DNA of 64,000 bases, taken from Gemmatimonadota bacterium. Lineage in GTDB: Bacteria; JAAXHH01. The notes under the pieces are model-generated. The model ran no database searches. It saw only the letters and a list, made by a program, of their open reading frames with translations, and was not told the origin of the DNA. Of this stretch, positions 6,434 to 46,228 are shown in pieces (positions within the stretch are counted from its first letter, which is position 1; every line of letters starts with the position of its first letter). The DNA is taken from NCBI GenBank assembly GCA_009838645.1, contig VXRC01000005.1, positions 26,858 to 90,857 of the forward strand, written 5' to 3'. The position numbers and the translations under genes are program-made.

Positions 6434-9400
6434 TCAGAAGCTTATGCGTCCGATGAGACCTATGCGGTGATGGACAGGTCCGCCCCTTTGATCGACACGC
6501 GAGCCTGAAAGCTCCAAGGAACCGGAACGCCGACTTCGGACCGGGGTGCCGACGCGGGTTCCGATCCGCACCTGCCGCCGTTCATCGCCGTAGAGATTCA
6601 TCTCGCCGAAAGAGGTGAACAGCACGCCGGCGGAAGAAGCCAGGCCATACCCCACCTCGGTCCGCAGGGAATGGGCGTCGTTTCTTCCGCGTAAATCGGA
6701 TCCGGCAAGCGGCCGGTCGCGCCACATCATGCCGGAGTCGCCGGCTCCGGCGCCCACGCGCGGGGCCACGGACATCATAAGGCCCCGCCCGTCCGCGTCG
6801 GGATTCATGAAGGCGACCAGGGAGAACCCGTGTTCGCTGTAACCCTGGCCGGTATGGACGGCCAGGAACCTGCCTCGTGCGTGCACGCCGATCCGGTTTC
6901 CGGCCAGCCGCAGGCCGCCCGATACCTCGAGGCCCTGTCCGGTTCGTCCGTCGCCGCCGTCATGGCGTCCGGCCACCTGGACATAGGGGGTTGCCGTGGC
7001 GCCGCCGCCCAGAGATGCCGATCGCGAACCTTCCAATCCGATGCGCATACGCTGGACGCTGGCGACAATATCGCGCAACGCGGCTGATCCACTATCGGAG
7101 GTGGAAACGCGCAGCAGTCCCGCGTCGCCCACCACGTCGATCCCCATGCTTCCGGAGGAGGCCAGCCGCGACCGCAGCCCCGCCATGCCCATTCGCATGT
7201 CCAGATCACTGGCGTCCGTTCCGTCGTCGACGTTACCGGAACCGAGACCCAGGATCGTCCACACTTCGGTGCAGCATCCCTCCCCAGACCAGCGCGCGTA
7301 GGGCAGTACGCTGGCGAGGCTGGCCTCAAGGCTTCCGCTGGCCACGGCGACGTCGTAGTCGGACCGTCCCATGGTGTAGGAGAGGGCGATACCGGCCATC
7401 CAGCGCTGCCGCGCGGCCAGGTCTACGCCGAGATAGGCCGTCGTCGTGTTGCCGTCAAATGAGGCGCCGTCCGCGGGTTCGTTCTTGAAACGCTGCCAGT
7501 CGCCGGCCCCCCATACGCCCCATCGAAGACGGTCGCCGGCGGCCTGGTCGTCGAAGGCGTAGGAGAAGGCGCTGGACCGGAGCAGGTAATCTCCGCGGCC
7601 ACCGTCCCGATGCCGTCCGCCGTCCATCAGCGCCATTTCTCTTGACGAATCCCGGTTTCGGTGCCCAGTCACGTCAGCCAGCGCCGACACGGCGGCCGCG
7701 GGACCGTCGATCCTGCGTCCACCCACGACCACACCCTGGCCGCCGCCGGTGAAACGCCCTCCGACTGTGGTCGAAACGCTCGATAGCATGCCGCGGCCCA
7801 TGGCGGCGAGGATATCGGTATACGTCTCGCGTTCCGCCAGGACGGCCGTGACGGTTACGCCGAAGACGAGGCTGGCCTCACCGGCCGCGTTCCTGGCGGA
7901 GAGGGTCACCGTGGCCGATCCTTTGCGCACACCCGTTACGCTCAGCGTGGCGCCGGAGAGGACCGCTTCGGCCACGCCGTTGTCCGACGAACTCACCGAA
8001 TAGGTCGGCGAGGTGCCGCTGAAGAGCGCGCCCGCATCGATCGTCTCGGAATCCCCCGCTTCCAACGTGACCGGCGGCACGACGCCGGAAACCGCCGGAG
8101 CCTCGAAGGCATCGCTTATCTTGAGCGTCGCGGCGCCGAGATCCCGGCCATTGAAAAGCGCTGTGAAGATGATCGTTTCGTCCCCCAATTCGTACACATA
8201 GTCACGGACGGGCGTGATGGTAAGCCCCGTCGATCCCTCCGTCTCCCCGCCGGGAATCGAGATACTCAGATTTCCGCTCACACTGTAGTCGTCGCCGGCA
8301 GCTGTGCCGGAAAGCGAGAGGGGGATCACAACCGCGACCGGTATGGCCAGACCCGTCCGCGTCGCCGTCACGGTCACGGGCTGCGCGCCGGCGGCCTCCG
8401 ACACGGCGGCCGGACTCACCGTAAGCGTGATGTCGGGCACGTGTTCTGTAACGTCGAAATAGATCCCCGATCCGATGATGTATTCCGTTCCGCCGTAAGT
8501 CGCGGTCTCCGCGTAACTCACCTTCGGCGAGCCGGATGCTTCATCTCCAACTACGTCCGGGTTGTCGAAGTAATACTCGACGAAACCGCCTCCGGCCTGT
8601 GCGGCCATGATGATTTCACGGGTGTAAAAGACCCCGTTGAGGTCCTGGTGATCATAGAGGTTCACGTTTTCCAGCGATGAATTGGCGCCGTGAAACAACA
8701 ACACGCCGTCGTCCCGATAGATAAACAGGTAAACCGCCCCGTGCTTCCAGGGACCGTCTTCTTCTCGGAGCGCTCTTCCTATCTGCGCCGGTGGCGCTTC
8801 CGGACCGGAGCCCGTCAGCGCAAAGGCCTCCTCCGACCAACTGGCCGCGCCCTTCACGAAAGATCTCAGCGTTTCCCGGTCCATAACGTCCCGCGCCCAT
8901 ACCGCGGGTGGTTCCGGCAGTTCCGATTCCTCGCCGCTCGTTATGTACTGATTGAAACCGGCCGCCACCACCCAGGTCTGGCCGGTCTGCGCAAGGGCAT
9001 AGGGGATCGCATAGGCAACCCGGTCCGGAGGAGATGTCGAGGCGATCCGGAGCGGATCGACACCTTCCACATCGGGATCGTCCCACGTGTAATCGACGAA
9101 ACCACCGCCGGCCGCTGCCGTCTCCAGGATCTTTCGGACGACCAACACTCCGTTGTCGTCTTCCAGGTTGCTCGCGTCGATACCGTCCCGGGTAGGGTCG
9201 TCCGCGTGCAGGAACACCGTGCCGTCGGGATGGAACAAGACGAAATACATCATGCCGGGCACTCTCCAGATCCCCTCCGATCGGATATCCGCCTGGAGTC
9301 GGACGGCTTCGTCCGCGGTGTCTATGGTATCCAGGTAATCCCTGAAACCCGTCACGAAGGATCGAAGCGTCTCGCGGTCCACCACGTCGGCCGCCGTTAC

Positions 9401-40617: not shown

Positions 40618-40628
40618 GGTTGACAACC
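40618..40628. promoter_or_regulatory. Palindromic motif GGTTGACAACC, copy 2 of 2
   Basis: Identical to the copy at 40506-40516. Confidence 0.35.
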
Positions 40629-40748
40629 GGGAAAGAAAACACCAAACTTCTATCACTACAAGCAAACAGCCTGACATTAAATGGTTCTCGTTATCCGGTC
40701 GCATTTAACCCCGTGACCTCAAGTTTTGCAGATTCCCGGGAGCACCCC

Positions 40749-42548
40749 ATGTACCATCAACGGAAACACGGACGCATTCGCAGGCTGTCCCTTAGCCTGA
40801 TCCTTGCGACCACGACCCTCTGCCTGCTTGCTACCTCGAACTCCTCCGCCCAGTACACGCCGGTGGGCCCCGGCGACGTAGTCGATCTATCGCCGGTCAT
40901 ATCCGGCCGCCATTACCAGTACTGGCCGGGTGGGCAGATCCATCACCAGCCCCTCGTCGTGCCCTATATCGTCCACGGAGACCGGCCCTGGGCATCGGAC
41001 CTGATCATCCTGGACGAGAACACGGCGACGCAGACGGACACGCCAGCCCACATGATGCCGCCCCAGCACAGCGGGCTGCCGAACGCCCACTACTGGGGTG
41101 ATCTTACGGTGGAAAAAGTCCCGGCCTGGCAACTCGTGGGCGAGGTTTACAAAATCGACGGCCGGTCCATGCTGGACCAGGCCCCGCCGGGCGTGAGTCC
41201 CCTGTTCACCATAGATGTGGTAAAGGCCGCCGAGGCGGCGCACAGGCCCATGGGACCGGGCGACGCCGTCCTGTACTGGAGCGGGTACGACGACCGCCAC
41301 GACCGGCCCGCGCCGGACGACCGCCGCCTGATCGTGGAACCCGTCGGTGGGACGGCGCCTGGATGGCCCGCGCCGGACTACGACGCGGCGGAATACGTGG
41401 GCAGCCGGGGGGTCTGGCTCATGGGCATCGACAGTCCGAGCATGGGTGGACTGGGTCCGCCCCGCTACATCGCGTCGGGTCCCGAGGGCATGTACGTAAA
41501 TCCCCTCGCCCTGGAAAGCCATCTCGGCCATTTCAAGTACGGTGCCGTGCACACGGAGGGACTGATCAACCTGGACAGGACGCCCAACGGATCCCTGTAC
41601 ATCGCCCTGCCGGTCAAGCACGAGAACTCACCCACGGTGGAAACGCGGGCGGTGGCCATAACCAATCCGGACCTGGCTGCACGTCTGCTTGAGGCCGTTA
41701 AGTCGAAACGGGTGGTCGACCTCTCCGTAACGCTGTCAATGGACCGCCCCGTCTGGTGGCCGGGCCGCGGCGTGGGCCGTCACGTCTTCCCCTATTCGAG
41801 GGTGCAGCCGGTGAACTATTTCGATGGTCCCTTCGGCCCCTACTGGGTCAACACCCATATCATGGACGCCCATACCGGGACCCACGTGGATCCGCCCGCG
41901 CACTACGGCCCTCCGCCCGGATTCGACACGGGCAGCTATGACGAAACGGTCCGCGTCGCGCTAAGGGAGTTCGAGGCCGAGCACGGTCCGCTGAAGCACA
42001 CGGAAATGACGACGGAAAAAGTCCCGTTGCACCACTTCATGGGCCCCGCCCGAGTCGTCAACGTGCAGCACCGTGTGGGGACGACCTCGAGGGATGACTG
42101 GCCGGCCTCACCGGCCATCACGCTGGACGATGTCAGGAGACACGAGGAACTGTACGGGGAGATCGAGGGCGGTGAGGTCGTGCTCTTCCATACGGGACAT
42201 ACGGACACCCATTTCCGCCGCTTCATCCGGGTTGTGGTGGAACAGACTGTCAAGGCGCCTCTGGATGGACAGTCCGAGGGATGGCCGGCGCCGGGTGCGG
42301 AAGTTATCGCCTACCTGGCCGGCAAAGGCGTGAAGCACGTGGGCATCGATACGCCCGACATGGGATCGGTGGACCCGGTGGAATCCATGAAGACGCACTG
42401 GACGGCGGTGAACCACGACATGATCTTCACGGAGTATCTGATTGGCGTGGGCCAGCTTCCGCCGAAGGGCGCCTTCTACGTCTTCCTGTGTCCCCGCCTC
42501 GAGAACAACCACGGAGGTCCGGGAAGGGCCATCGCCATACTCCCGTAA
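40749..42548 (+). CDS. Secreted tandem cyclase-family protein (two kynurenine formamidase/putative cyclase-like domains)
   Basis: A signal peptide MYHQRKHGRIRRLSLSLILATTTLCLLATSNSSAQ is present. Two repeats carry the cyclase metal motif (QTDTPAHM and HTGTHVDPPAHY). The start was trimmed from the TTG at 40620. Confidence 0.65.
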   Translation: MYHQRKHGRIRRLSLSLILATTTLCLLATSNSSAQYTPVGPGDVVDLSPVISGRHYQYWPGGQIHHQPLVVPYIVHGDRPWASDLIILDENTATQTDTPAHMMPPQHSGLPNAHYWGDLTVEKVPAWQLVGEVYKIDGRSMLDQAPPGVSPLFTIDVVKAAEAAHRPMGPGDAVLYWSGYDDRHDRPAPDDRRLIVEPVGGTAPGWPAPDYDAAEYVGSRGVWLMGIDSPSMGGLGPPRYIASGPEGMYVNPLALESHLGHFKYGAVHTEGLINLDRTPNGSLYIALPVKHENSPTVETRAVAITNPDLAARLLEAVKSKRVVDLSVTLSMDRPVWWPGRGVGRHVFPYSRVQPVNYFDGPFGPYWVNTHIMDAHTGTHVDPPAHYGPPPGFDTGSYDETVRVALREFEAEHGPLKHTEMTTEKVPLHHFMGPARVVNVQHRVGTTSRDDWPASPAITLDDVRRHEELYGEIEGGEVVLFHTGHTDTHFRRFIRVVVEQTVKAPLDGQSEGWPAPGAEVIAYLAGKGVKHVGIDTPDMGSVDPVESMKTHWTAVNHDMIFTEYLIGVGQLPPKGAFYVFLCPRLENNHGGPGRAIAILP

Positions 42549-42584: not shown

Positions 42585-43163
42585 TTACGAGTCGTCCGCG
42601 TCCCGTCCCACCCCAAGGGCGTCCGCGACGCGGTTGATGTAGTTGAACCACGACGCGATCAGGGTGATCTGGAGGATGGCGACGTCGTCGAACCCCACGG
42701 CCCGCAGTCCTTCGAGATCGCCTTTGCGTATCTGCGTGGCATCCTCGGTAAGCCGGATGGCGAAATCGAGCATCGCCCGGTCCTGCGCGTTCAGCGGCGC
42801 CTTGTCGTAGTCGTACTTGATCGCTTCGACCAGTTCGCTGTCCAACGTGACCCGACGCAGAAACTCTGCGTGCGAATCAATTCAGTATACACACCGGTTT
42901 CTCGACGAGACGATGGTCGAGATCATCTCGTGCTGCCTGCGGCTCAACGGCAGATCCGGCGACAGCAACACCCCGAAGGTGGCGAAGGCGTGATGCAGCG
43001 CCTCCGGGATCAATGAATGGGACGCCACGATGCCGGACGTGCCGTCGTCGGTGGGATGCACCGGCGTGTCGTACTCCGCGGGATAAAGCGCGCGCTGTGC
43101 CTCGAGGGCGGCGAGCAGCCGTTCGTCCCCATCCGACGCGGAGACGGTCTTAATCCATGCCAT
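42585..43163 (-). CDS. Carboxymuconolactone decarboxylase (AhpD-like / peroxidase-related) family protein with an in-frame UGA, a selenocysteine candidate
   Basis: Two ORFs in the same frame (43232-42882 and 42845-42585) are separated only by a TGA at about 42882-42884. The motif reads SxxNRCVY[UGA]IDSH, matching the CMD-family NxCxYCxxxH motif with UGA at the second Cys. A hairpin ACGCAG-AGUUU-CUGCGU begins 10 nt downstream of the UGA. Confidence 0.55.
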
Positions 43164-44505
43164 GGGCTTCTCCTGACGGTCTTTGCTGTGTGGACTGTTT
43201 TCTGAATACGAGAAAGTACACCGGTATCCCAAGGACCGTCACGCCGACGCCGAGCAGGGCCTGCACGGGACTGTTGCCGAAGAGCAGCACGAGCAGGACC
43301 GCGGCGAGGATCAGGAACAGCACCGGGGTGACGGGATAGAAGGGGGTCCGGTAGGGAGGCGTCTCGGACGACCTGCGGCGTACCACGAACAGGCCCGCCA
43401 CGGTGAGCGCGATGAACAGTACGGCCACGAAGATGAAGTAATCCAGGATCTGGCTGAAGGTCCCCAGCCACACCAGCAGCGAGGCCAGTCCGCCCTGGAT
43501 GGCGATCGCACGGTAGGGCGTGCCGAAGGCGGGATGGACCGCGCCGGCGAAGCGGAGGAAGACCCCGTCCCTGGCCATGGCGAAATACACCCTCGGCGCC
43601 ATGAGCAGCAGTCCGGTCAGGCTGCCGACGATGGACAAGATGACCACGGAGGAAAACAGGATGCCGCCGCTGCGTCCGAAGAGCACCTCGCCGGCCTGCG
43701 CCGCGAAGGTCTCGTCGCTGGTGACCTGGGATACGGGTACGAGGTACATGAAGACGGCGCTGGTGGTGATGTAGGTCAACGCGACGATGCCTACGGCCAG
43801 CAGCAGCGCCCGGGGCAGGATGCGCGCTGGGTCCTTGATTTCACCGGCCACCTTGTTCAGGTCCCACCAGCCGGCGAAGGCGAAGAAGGCGCCCACGATG
43901 CCGCCGGCGAGGGCGCCGAACAACGGGCCGGAATCCGCGGGCCGCGCCACGAAGGGCGTGAAGTTCGACCAGTCGCCGAGCCCCAGGCCGAACCCCAGGA
44001 GGGAGATGACCGCGAGCACCCCGACCTTGAACACGGTCAGCAGGACGATGATCCAGGCGCCGATGCGCACGCCGTAGATGTTGACGGCGGTGAGGACGGC
44101 CAGCACGACGATGGCCAGCAACTTCATCGCGACCGGGTCCATCGCGTAGATATGGCCCGCGTAGCTTGCCATACCGGTCGCCAGGGTCGCCGTGATGCCC
44201 GGATCCAGCACCATCAGGGACATCCATCCGTACAGAAAGGCCGTCGGCGTGCCGTAGGCCTCCCGGAGATATACGTATCCGCCGCCCGCGTGGGGATAAC
44301 GGGAAGCCAGTTCCCCGAAACACAGCGAACCGCAGAGGGCCATCCCGGCCATCGTCAGCCAGATGACGAGCAGCAGCAGGGGCGATCCCAGCGACTTGGC
44401 CATCCCGGCGGGCACCAGGAAGATCCCCACGGCGATCATCCCGCTGATCACCATGGCCGTGGTCGGCCAGATACCCAGTTGTCGGCGCAGGTTACCCGTG
44501 GTCAT
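43150..44505 (-). CDS. APC family amino acid/polyamine permease
   Basis: About 12 TM helices over 451 aa with APC-superfamily GxG and aromatic belt features. Confidence 0.85.
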   Translation of the reverse strand: MTTGNLRRQLGIWPTTAMVISGMIAVGIFLVPAGMAKSLGSPLLLLVIWLTMAGMALCGSLCFGELASRYPHAGGGYVYLREAYGTPTAFLYGWMSLMVLDPGITATLATGMASYAGHIYAMDPVAMKLLAIVVLAVLTAVNIYGVRIGAWIIVLLTVFKVGVLAVISLLGFGLGLGDWSNFTPFVARPADSGPLFGALAGGIVGAFFAFAGWWDLNKVAGEIKDPARILPRALLLAVGIVALTYITTSAVFMYLVPVSQVTSDETFAAQAGEVLFGRSGGILFSSVVILSIVGSLTGLLLMAPRVYFAMARDGVFLRFAGAVHPAFGTPYRAIAIQGGLASLLVWLGTFSQILDYFIFVAVLFIALTVAGLFVVRRRSSETPPYRTPFYPVTPVLFLILAAVLLVLLFGNSPVQALLGVGVTVLGIPVYFLVFRKQSTQQRPSGEAHGMD

Positions 44506-44520
44506 GAACGCGTTTTCGTC

Positions 44521-45324
44521 TCACACCAGTTCGGGTTCGTTTTCGATCCGGCTCAGCCAGTAGTGGTTGTCGAACTGGTCGTCACCGGTCAGGAACCGCC
44601 AGAAGTGGATCCGGTTGACATGTTCGATGCGTTCTTCGTTCCCGTGCCACGGCTGGTTCGTGCTCAGGATATGGCTGACTTCCGGATCGTCGATGTCATC
44701 CGTGTTCCAGAGCCTTAGCTGCCGGACCGTGGGGTTGAGTCGCAGCTTGAACATGTACCGCATCTCGTCGGTGCGATTCGGCTGGGCGCAGTGCCACATG
44801 CCGTGATGGAGCACGATCACCGTCCCGGCCTTGCAGATCATCGGCACCTGGCCCACGAAGTTGTGGTACCGGGCGATGTCGGATTCGCTGATGCGTCGGT
44901 AGTGGCTTCCGGGAAGGATCAGCGTTCCTCCCATTTCCCTGGGCGTGTCGTGGGCGAAATACATGAACTGGATGTCGAAGTGCAGCCGCGTGTCTATGAT
45001 CGCGTCCGCGTGCCAGTGCTGTCCGAAATGGTGGCCTGCCGCTACGGTGTGCACGGCGTGGTGGTCGTATAGCGGATCCGGTCCCACGAGGCTGTGGATG
45101 ATGCCTTCGATCTCCGGCAGCCGGAAAACGCGTCCCACGGCCGCTTCCGGCCAGATGACGCTCAGCGGCAATCCCGCCTCTTCCCGGGGGATGGCCTGGT
45201 TGTCCATTTCGGCTTTCACGGACTGGTTGAGATCTTCGGGCACCAGTTCGTCGAAACGGAGATACCCCTCCGCGACGAACCGCGCCATTTGCTTGGAATT
45301 CAACAGATGGGTGCTGTCAGCCAT
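44521..45324 (-). CDS. Phytanoyl-CoA dioxygenase (PhyH) family Fe(II)/2OG oxygenase
   Basis: A 267-aa protein with the HWHAD HxD motif and a distal His (HHGMWH). Confidence 0.75.
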   Translation of the reverse strand: MADSTHLLNSKQMARFVAEGYLRFDELVPEDLNQSVKAEMDNQAIPREEAGLPLSVIWPEAAVGRVFRLPEIEGIIHSLVGPDPLYDHHAVHTVAAGHHFGQHWHADAIIDTRLHFDIQFMYFAHDTPREMGGTLILPGSHYRRISESDIARYHNFVGQVPMICKAGTVIVLHHGMWHCAQPNRTDEMRYMFKLRLNPTVRQLRLWNTDDIDDPEVSHILSTNQPWHGNEERIEHVNRIHFWRFLTGDDQFDNHYWLSRIENEPELV

Positions 45325-45622
45325 CGACCACCTCCATTTTTTCGAGTATGTACTCGTACTTGAGATAGGACACCTGGTATTCCGTACCCGGATAGGCCGG
45401 ATATTGCTGGGGAAACTGGACGACCCGCCAACCGTCCCGCATGGCGTCCACTACCGACGCGTAGGGGGGATTCGTAGCGCCGCCCGAGTCCGCGGCGTCC
45501 CCCGATGTGTGGCGTTCGTCGGCGGCCGAGGTGCCGTCGAATTCGGACCAGGCCACGACGCCGGCGTGAAGGTCGGGGGTCCGCAGGTAAAGCACCAGCA
45601 GTTTCTGGCGTGTTTCAGGCAT
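45317..45622 (-). CDS. Hypothetical small protein (101 aa)
   Basis: The translation begins MPETRQKLLVLYLRT and ends YQVSYLKYEYILEK. Both of its gene boundaries overlap the neighbours. I recognise no family. Confidence 0.4.
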   Translation of the reverse strand: MPETRQKLLVLYLRTPDLHAGVVAWSEFDGTSAADERHTSGDAADSGGATNPPYASVVDAMRDGWRVVQFPQQYPAYPGTEYQVSYLKYEYILEKMEVVDG

Positions 45623-46128
45623 TACGTTCCCTTTCCGGTGATGCGCGCTATCGTGTCGGTGGTCGACATGCCGTCCAGGACGGGCACTCTCTCCACGCGG
45701 CCGCCGTAGGATTCCACCACGTCCCAGCCCACCACTTCCTCGTGGCCGTAGTGACCTCCTTTGACCAGGACGTCCGGCTTGAGCAGGTTGAGCAGCGGGA
45801 TGGGCGTTGGCTCGCCGAAAAGGACCACATGGTCCACGCAGGCCAGGGCGCCGAGCATGTAGGCCCGTTCCGTTTCGCCGTAGATCGGCCGGCCCTCGTC
45901 CTTGATCGCCCGGACGGACGCGTCGGTGTTTATGGCCACGATGAGCAGGTCGCCGAATGATCGCGCGGTCTGCAGGAGATGGACATGGCCCGGATGGAGC
46001 AGATCGAAGCAACCGTTCGTGAACACGACGGTGGCGCCATTCCGGCGCGCGCGCTCCACGACCGATGCAAGTTCATCGCGTTCGAGGAGTTTACCGCGGG
46101 TCTGCTGATCGGGCATAACCGGCCACAA
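45622..46128 (-). CDS. Cytidylyltransferase-like adenylyltransferase (RfaE domain II / HldE C-terminal-like)
   Basis: The translation carries FTNGCFDLLHPGH and nucleotidyltransferase HxGH-class motifs over about 165 aa. Confidence 0.7.
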   Translation of the reverse strand: MWPVMPDQQTRGKLLERDELASVVERARRNGATVVFTNGCFDLLHPGHVHLLQTARSFGDLLIVAINTDASVRAIKDEGRPIYGETERAYMLGALACVDHVVLFGEPTPIPLLNLLKPDVLVKGGHYGHEEVVGWDVVESYGGRVERVPVLDGMSTTDTIARITGKGT

Positions 46129-46228
46129 CGTACGTTTTGACGATTCTAGCGAGTTGTCCTTGATGTAACATCGGGAGAGCGGGGCGTGTCAACCTAAATA
46201 ACCGGGGCAGGCGGTCGGACGGACGAGG

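Follow-up and report, generated by a model that had tools for sequence, protein, structure and literature searches.

The question raised by the locus at 42585..43163 on the minus strand of a 64,000-nucleotide stretch of contig VXRC01000005.1 (positions 26,858 to 90,857; assembly GCA_009838645.1, Gemmatimonadota bacterium; the whole stretch is hereafter called the window) is whether a gene of the AhpD/carboxymuconolactone decarboxylase (CMD) type has been broken there by a stop codon, or whether the UGA inside it is read as selenocysteine (Sec). Mechanical listing of open reading frames (ORFs) splits the gene into the same-frame pieces 42882..43232(-) and 42585..42845(-). Translation of the minus strand from 43163 to 42585 gave one frame, 192 codons long with the Sec codon counted, in which TGA is the sole internal stop; the frame starts with ATG at 43163..43161 (MAWIKTV) and finishes before a terminal TAA at 42587..42585 (GVGRDADDS*). 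The original prediction, made from the sequence alone, had described two same-frame ORFs parted by a single TGA, and both the ORF listing and the translation bear this out. The stretch 43163..42585(-) is one intact gene encoding an AhpD-like, CMD-fold thiol/selenol oxidoreductase of the TIGR01926 family. Judged from sequence comparison, the two ORF pieces and the UGA very probably form a genuine Sec-decoded gene with a selenocysteine insertion sequence (SECIS) and not a pseudogene (probability of about 0.93).

Gene identity and conservation of the in-frame UGA

In a profile search with the UGA written as Cys, the protein matched TIGR01926 'peroxidase-related enzyme' (118.3 bits, cut-off 81.8, E = 3.1e-34) over profile positions 36-174 of 178, and PF02627 (CMD) with 33.1 bits against a cut-off of 23. 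The score for TIGR00777, the genuine AhpD model, was far under threshold (19.8 bits, cut-off 191.95), and no PcaC model was found among the profile matches of the selenoprotein, whose neighbors encode an APC permease, a PhyH-like dioxygenase and a cyclase-domain protein.

The UGA is codon 94 (42884..42882, minus strand). The motif around it is NRC-V-Y-[UGA]-IDSH, in which Sec would replace the second Cys of CxxC to give CxxU. The first residue of CxxU, Cys91, is the presumed resolving thiol; its codon (42891..42893, minus strand) is TGC or TGT in all 158 distinct genes of the DNA set described below. The codon of Glu79 (42927..42929, minus strand) lies 12 residues before Cys91, and this Glu is invariant among homologues. 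The codon of the invariant His98 is CAC (42870..42872, minus strand), which is also the opening codon of the SECIS core. Altogether, E79, C91, Y93, U94 and H98 are invariant or nearly so among homologues.

The protein search gave 884 relatives, of which the best 120, about 188 aa each, were analyzed. These homologues cover 97-100% of the query and span the TGA. At the aligned position, Cys was observed in 42 of the best 120 proteins, Trp in 75 and Leu in 1, and in the 42 Cys forms this second Cys is invariant. DNA was taken from the 80 best genomic and the 80 best metagenomic relatives (160 loci, 161 gene copies, 158 distinct genes), and TGA was found at the homologous codon in 161/161 gene copies. 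The genomic carriers are metagenome-assembled genomes (MAGs) labeled Latescibacterota, Gemmatimonadota, Acidobacteriota (Terriglobia, Blastocatellia), Planctomycetales, Verrucomicrobiae, KSB1 and others, and the nearest relatives are mostly soil Acidobacteriota and Gemmatimonadota MAGs. Amino-acid identity between pairs of the 158 distinct genes averages 75% and does not fall below 63%. Conservation is as strong in the C-terminal half, which contains an invariant block, as in the N-terminal half, while synonymous sites are free to vary.

Nine Latescibacterota genomes that were assembled independently, some of them as complete chromosomes from long reads, share the TGA with about 150 further contigs. 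The window itself is 90-93% identical in DNA over about 20 kb to three Ca. Latescibacterota MAGs (L001, L003 and L009), of which L003 belongs to a contig of 3.84 Mb (CBDETH010000008.1) and L009 to a complete chromosome (OZ220749.1). In one MAG labeled 'uncultured Deferribacteres' (L034), two selenoprotein gene copies, at 10280 and 13477, lie about 3.2 kb apart, and both carry the TGA and the SECIS core.

As for the Trp entries, the only one traceable to a fetched locus (P0019) is encoded with a TGA codon on a contig that had been translated under genetic code 4 (L135). The 75 Trp entries among the best 120 come mostly from JGI/IMG gene calling on contigs about 1 kb long, and together these points suggest systematic mistranslation with genetic code 4. 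In the window, TGA terminates 18 of 35 likely genes and is the commonest ordinary stop; therefore, the genetic code is not reassigned. A scan of the window for more in-frame-TGA genes with coding signal on both sides returned only the AhpD-like gene; other candidates were rejected as adjacent genes sharing a frame by chance.

A nearest-neighbor test was run with the Sec/Cys column masked. The nearest neighbor was also a Sec form for 73 of 75 Sec forms and also a Cys form for 38 of 42 Cys forms. The residues after position 94 are I-E/D in Sec forms and mostly S/T-x in Cys forms. Two Cys entries (P0062 and P0063), whose signature is the Sec-type 'C-I-E-S-H', are nested among the Sec forms at 87-89% identity. 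They may have reverted from Sec to Cys, or the databases may give C where the protein has U.

The hairpin downstream of the UGA

The RNA downstream of the stop reads UGA AUUGAUUCGC ACGCAG AGUUU CUGCGU. The stem-loop ACGCAG AGUUU CUGCGU lies at 42871..42855 and its stem begins 10 nt after the UGA, which agrees with the original prediction, and it is in this place that the codons are frozen. The conserved SECIS core, CACGCAGAGUUUCUGCGU, occupies 42855..42872 on the minus strand, that is, codons +4 to +9 after the UGA. Its stem has 6-7 bp, formed by ACGCAG[A] with [U]CUGCGU, and its G-containing apical loop is GUU or AGUUU. By RNAfold, the full hairpin of the window's lineage (42848..42879, minus strand) has 14 bp with one bulged C and the loop GUU, begins 2 nt after the UGA and carries the stem-loop first noticed as its top; loci L001-L009 of Latescibacterota fold in the same way. 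For the 66-nt segment, the folding energy is -21.3 kcal/mol.

The codons of the core were compared with 99 other conserved codon columns in a codon alignment of the 158 distinct genes. The six codons encoding HAEFLR were almost fixed: His is CAC in 158/158 genes, Ala is GCA in 154/158 (GCG in 4), Glu is GAG in 158/158, Phe is UUU in 157/158, Leu is CUG in 158/158 and Arg is CGU in 144/158 (CGC in 13). The codon entropy was 0-0.41 bits at these six codons versus 0.44-2.26 bits (median 1.45) at the 99 others, so that each HAEFLR codon lies below every other conserved codon (Mann-Whitney U = 0, p = 2e-5). The third-position identity between gene pairs was 0.96 in the HAEFLR codons versus 0.48 elsewhere. 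Conserved residues outside the hairpin normally use 2-6 codons, and within the gene synonymous variation is suppressed solely in the hairpin codons. The rare substitutions in the core mostly keep the pairing, as with the change of GCA to GCG in 4 genes and one change of C to U, both of which give G-U pairs.

Five Cys homologues that have the same HAEFLR peptide vary at the core codons (CAT/CAC, GCG/GCC, GAA/GAG, TTC/TTT, CTC/CTG and CGG/CGC/AGG/CGA/CGT), and the core Ala itself changes to V, L, T, E or M in Cys forms. Because the nucleotide constraint is absent from Cys forms, it is tied to the UGA. The support for the hairpin is this suppression at synonymous sites and not covariation.

In E. 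coli fdhF, SelB requires a mini-helix that lies about 11 nt beyond the UGA and has G and U in its loop. The hairpin of the window resembles the fdhF SECIS in lying in the coding region after the UGA, with the mini-helix about 10-11 nt away and with G and U in a small apical loop; a bulge is present below the upper stem here. The two sequences are unrelated, SelB binding to the window hairpin is putative, and no Rfam match was obtained for it. By analogy with fdhF, codon 94 would be decoded as Sec: when the ribosome reaches the UGA, the mRNA just downstream would fold into the SECIS hairpin, which would bind the complex of SelB, GTP and Sec-tRNA(Sec) and deliver it to the A site against release factor 2.

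Predicted redox centre and alternative explanations

The closest solved relatives of the protein are 2PFX, 2OYO, 2PRR, 3C1L and 6K40, with E-values from 5e-24 to 7e-18 and with aligned residues 48-185, that is, across the stop. The NxCxYCxxxH of the solved structures falls on NRCVY[U]IDSH of the query, and the CxxC of 2PFX, 2OYO and 6K40 is found at the UGA site. The UGA thus aligns with the invariant Cys of both the 42 Cys forms and the structures; this confirms the UGA-to-Cys correspondence sought by alignment to Cys-containing CMD homologues, and with it the claim that Sec takes the place of the second Cys in NxCxYCxxxH. All five structures (2PFX, 2OYO, 2PRR and 3C1L, which are structural-genomics 'uncharacterized peroxidase-related proteins', and 6K40) share NxCxYCxxxH and a length of about 190 residues with the window protein, but are Cys proteins, 25-30% identical to it, with no selenoprotein among them.

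The modeled protein was P0063 (AlphaFold/AF2), a Cys form that shares 70% identity with the window protein. Its model is all-helical with a predicted local distance difference test score (pLDDT) of 79, and gave template modeling (TM) scores of 0.71-0.73 against the closest solved relatives, including 0.72 against the D. radiodurans AhpD 6K40 and 0.73 against 2PFX, and only about 0.5 against 1KNC. In the model, the CxxC motif stands at the start of the helix 92-105, and the helices are continuous across the site.

The proton relay consists of Glu118/Cys130/His132/Cys133/His137 in M. tuberculosis AhpD (MtAhpD) and of Glu36/Cys48/Tyr50/Cys51/His55 in PA0269 (PMC3141380). The spacing of E79/C91/Y93/U94/H98 is identical to both relays; the Glu79-Cys91 spacing matches Glu118-Cys130 of MtAhpD and Glu36-Cys48 of PA0269, and His98 corresponds to His137 of MtAhpD. 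Sequence and model place an AhpD-like fold and the proton-relay pattern E-x11-C-x-[H/Y]-C-x3-H in the predicted protein. MtAhpD (1KNC, 1GU9), an adaptor that reduces AhpC, shares the CMD/AhpD helical fold and the relay spacing with the window protein but is very distant from it: its redox dithiol corresponds to a thiol-selenol pair here, Tyr replaces His132, Sec replaces Cys133, and no ahpC is nearby. In the window protein, Cys91 and Sec94 would form a CxxU redox centre at the N-terminus of a helix. Sec94 occupies the second CxxC position, where the AhpD literature places the attacking nucleophile; the predicted target of Sec94 is a peroxide, sulfenate or disulfide, and the resulting selenenyl intermediate would be resolved by Cys91.

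Several observations weigh against Sec decoding at this locus. Neither the 64-kb window nor the Latescibacterota loci yielded tRNA-Sec, selA, selB or selD: E. coli SelA, SelB and SelD had no tblastn match in the window or in the nine Latescibacterota loci (20 kb each), and ARAGORN detected no tRNA gene of any kind in the window and no tRNA-Sec in any of the 166 loci. The hairpin is thermodynamically unexceptional (z = -1.66), since 11 of 200 shuffles fold at least as well. No compensatory covariation was observed in the conserved stem, because this stem hardly varies. The lower 7 bp of the window hairpin are lineage-specific, and their pairs form in 20-60% of the family. Across the window, no Rfam family reached its gathering score; coverage of bacterial SECIS elements by Rfam is poor. 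The absence of Sec genes carries little weight, as the genome measures about 3.9 Mb and the window covers 64 kb of it. The search for Sec machinery in the window and the 166 loci yielded one gene, a genuine selB in a Longimicrobiales MAG (L043, 11402-13279, minus strand; TIGR00475, 365 bits, cut-off 242), about 7 kb downstream of its AhpD-like selenoprotein gene; selA and selD were not detected within that locus. For this genome, Sec decoding and its dependence on SelB are accordingly inferred.

A nonsense mutation of TGC, TGT or TGG to TGA could have killed a Cys-type CMD gene, whose downstream half would then be decaying. The TGA is indeed one substitution from each of these codons, and the window shows no Sec machinery; however, the same TGA in all related gene copies from several phyla, a frame beyond it that is as intact and as conserved as the frame before it, with the invariant block in its C-terminal half, and a nucleotide-level constraint confined to Sec forms leave a pseudogene hardly credible, in agreement with the preference of the original prediction for a selenoprotein. 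A single-base change, here TGC into TGA, could equally have arisen in sequencing or assembly of codon 94 of the window, and a related contig does differ at this codon. Such an error is exceedingly improbable given the TGA in the nine Latescibacterota genomes and about 150 other contigs, and the window itself has the Sec-type I-D/E residues and the SECIS core. The contig in question (L163:2598-2600; P0061, ENA contig k141_3915912) has TTA (Leu) in place of TGA and keeps the whole 18-nt SECIS core CACGCAGAGTTTCTGCGT and the Sec-type I-E-S-H signature; its TTA may be a recent mutation or a base-call error.

Mechanical ORF calling and a hairpin that follows the stop would suit two short genes, or a natural end at codon 93 with the 18-nt element serving as a terminator, attenuator or other regulatory hairpin. 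The AhpD-like fold, however, needs both halves, as seen in the alignment of the PDB homologues from 48 to 185 and in the continuous helices of the model; the CxxC motif would be split midway; no U-tract lies behind the hairpin; and no conserved start codon with ribosome-binding context follows the TGA, since the I-E/D-S-H residues there belong to the motif. This arrangement is thus extremely unlikely. Pseudogene, sequencing error and natural end at codon 93 are rejected because of the conserved TGA, frame and synonymous pattern. Somewhat less remote, although still very unlikely, is read-through of the UGA without Sec, by a near-cognate Trp or Cys tRNA or under genetic code 4 or 25, to give a Trp, Gly or Cys protein. 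Trp at the position in 75 of the 120 best database proteins and Sec machinery that is unverified for this genome would fit it, but at least one of these Trp residues is an annotation artefact (P0019), TGA ends about half of the likely window genes, true sense-codon homologues have Cys and not Trp or Gly, and simple read-through would not call for a hairpin frozen at SECIS distance. A Sec-decoded gene therefore remains the preferred interpretation.

Known family, gene neighborhood and implications

In 2005, 27 Sargasso Sea sequences of AhpD-like proteins with CxxU (COG2128) were described as a new selenoprotein family, together with a predicted SECIS (Zhang, Fomenko & Gladyshev; PMC1088965), and 'AhpD-like 1' (COG2128, CxxU), with 299 sequences, ranked fourth in abundance among the selenoprotein families of the Global Ocean Sampling (GOS) data (PMC2398784). 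A 2026 review lists an 'AhpD-like protein, TIGR01926, CxxU' (PMC13188914). These three sources bear out the reports of Sec-containing AhpD-like proteins in marine metagenomes to which the original prediction had referred. BSepDB also has a family page for AhpD-like selenoproteins. The window gene shares with this family the TIGR01926 match, CxxU, Sec at the second Cys and many Cys homologues, and in both the UGA is followed at once by a SECIS-like hairpin whose small apical loop contains a G. Nothing essential differs, except that the published sets are mainly marine and the window copy is from a Latescibacterota lineage. At the sequence level, the gene is a routine member of the AhpD-like CxxU family, already known since 2005. 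The near-invariant 18-nt core across phyla and the frequent upstream APC permease come from the present analysis and were not met in the consulted passages of the published family accounts.

Directly upstream, an APC-superfamily amino-acid permease of 451 aa (43150..44505, minus strand; PF13520, 198.5 bits) resembles L-type amino-acid transporters, with scores under the equivalog cut-offs. Its 3' end overlaps the selenoprotein start by 14 nt; therefore, the two genes are probably co-transcribed and translationally coupled. Of the 111 loci whose upstream DNA is long enough, 33 have the same permease immediately upstream of the gene, and it also lies upstream in two of the five Cys-homologue loci (L161 and L165). 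A PhyH-like Fe(II)/2-oxoglutarate dioxygenase gene of 267 aa (44521..45324, minus strand; PF05721, 44.2 bits) lies 15 nt upstream of the permease and is probably the first of a three-gene unit (PhyH-like, APC permease, selenoprotein); by tblastn it recurs only in 10 of the searched sequences, the window counted among them. The original prediction had placed the selenoprotein gene last in a tightly overlapping five-gene cassette, and this did not hold, as only the permease and selenoprotein genes overlap. A gap of 297 nt separates the PhyH-like gene from the frame of RfaE domain II, a D-glycero-beta-D-manno-heptose 1-phosphate adenylyltransferase (45622..46128, minus strand; TIGR02199, 183 bits against 181.5). 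The 231-aa ORF at 45317..46012 gave no family match and was rejected as a cassette member; it is probably spurious, as the overlapping frame encodes RfaE domain II; both frames fall within 45317..46188 on the minus strand. Further upstream are DprA, Obg, ICDH and MDH, which are unrelated housekeeping genes.

For AhpC, tblastn with the E. coli protein found nothing in the window, and no AhpC-type peroxiredoxin was found beside the gene in the 166 related loci, where a single weak match lies 9 kb away. The recurrent, overlapping APC permease suggests a small imported substrate rather than AhpC. Sequence and model predict a protein whose fold and motif are AhpD-like; the one lead to its substrate is the permease.

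Other neighbors were observed on the downstream side. In the window, a convergent gene of 642 aa (40620..42548, plus strand) with two stretches matching 'putative cyclase' PF04199 ends 37 nt from the stop of the selenoprotein gene. In 51 loci among L010-L160, apparently mostly Terriglobia by their labels, a protein of about 840 aa is encoded on the same strand about 0.4-1 kb downstream of the selenoprotein gene; from its sequence it looks like an acyl-CoA synthetase (AMP-binding), which makes it a conserved neighbor other than the permease of the window's lineage. The Cys homologue of Paludisphaera mucosa (L162) is followed by two pyridoxal phosphate (PLP) enzymes of Cys/Met metabolism (PF01053), a possible tie of the family to sulfur amino-acid metabolism that would agree with the amino-acid permease found elsewhere. 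Elsewhere in the window, long ORFs with good coding signal were found at 55139..61447 (minus strand, 2102 aa, GC content at third codon positions (GC3) 0.79) and at 6434..10777 (minus strand, 1447 aa, GC3 0.75).

A speculative and rather unlikely extension is that the PhyH-like dioxygenase, the APC permease and the AhpD-like Sec enzyme, the genes of the last two translationally coupled, form a small uptake module acting on an imported amino-acid-like compound, with the Sec enzyme as its redox component rather than as a general AhpC-type peroxidase partner. If this were true, the module could, for example, reduce an oxidized sulfur- or selenium-containing amino acid. The 18-nt core, which is the same in Acidobacteriota and Latescibacterota, would then indicate that the Sec form arose once and afterwards either spread laterally or stayed under a very strong dual constraint from coding and RNA.

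For annotation, the two ORF pieces should become one selenoprotein gene, and the same correction applies to the many database entries with Trp at the site. The 18-nt core found 12 nt after a TGA is a very specific metagenome marker for the AhpD-like selenoprotein family, and the recurrent permease neighbor is a lead to the substrate of TIGR01926 proteins. Otherwise, the gene is one more addition to a selenoprotein family of long standing, and it implies Sec decoding in the Latescibacterota lineage of the window.

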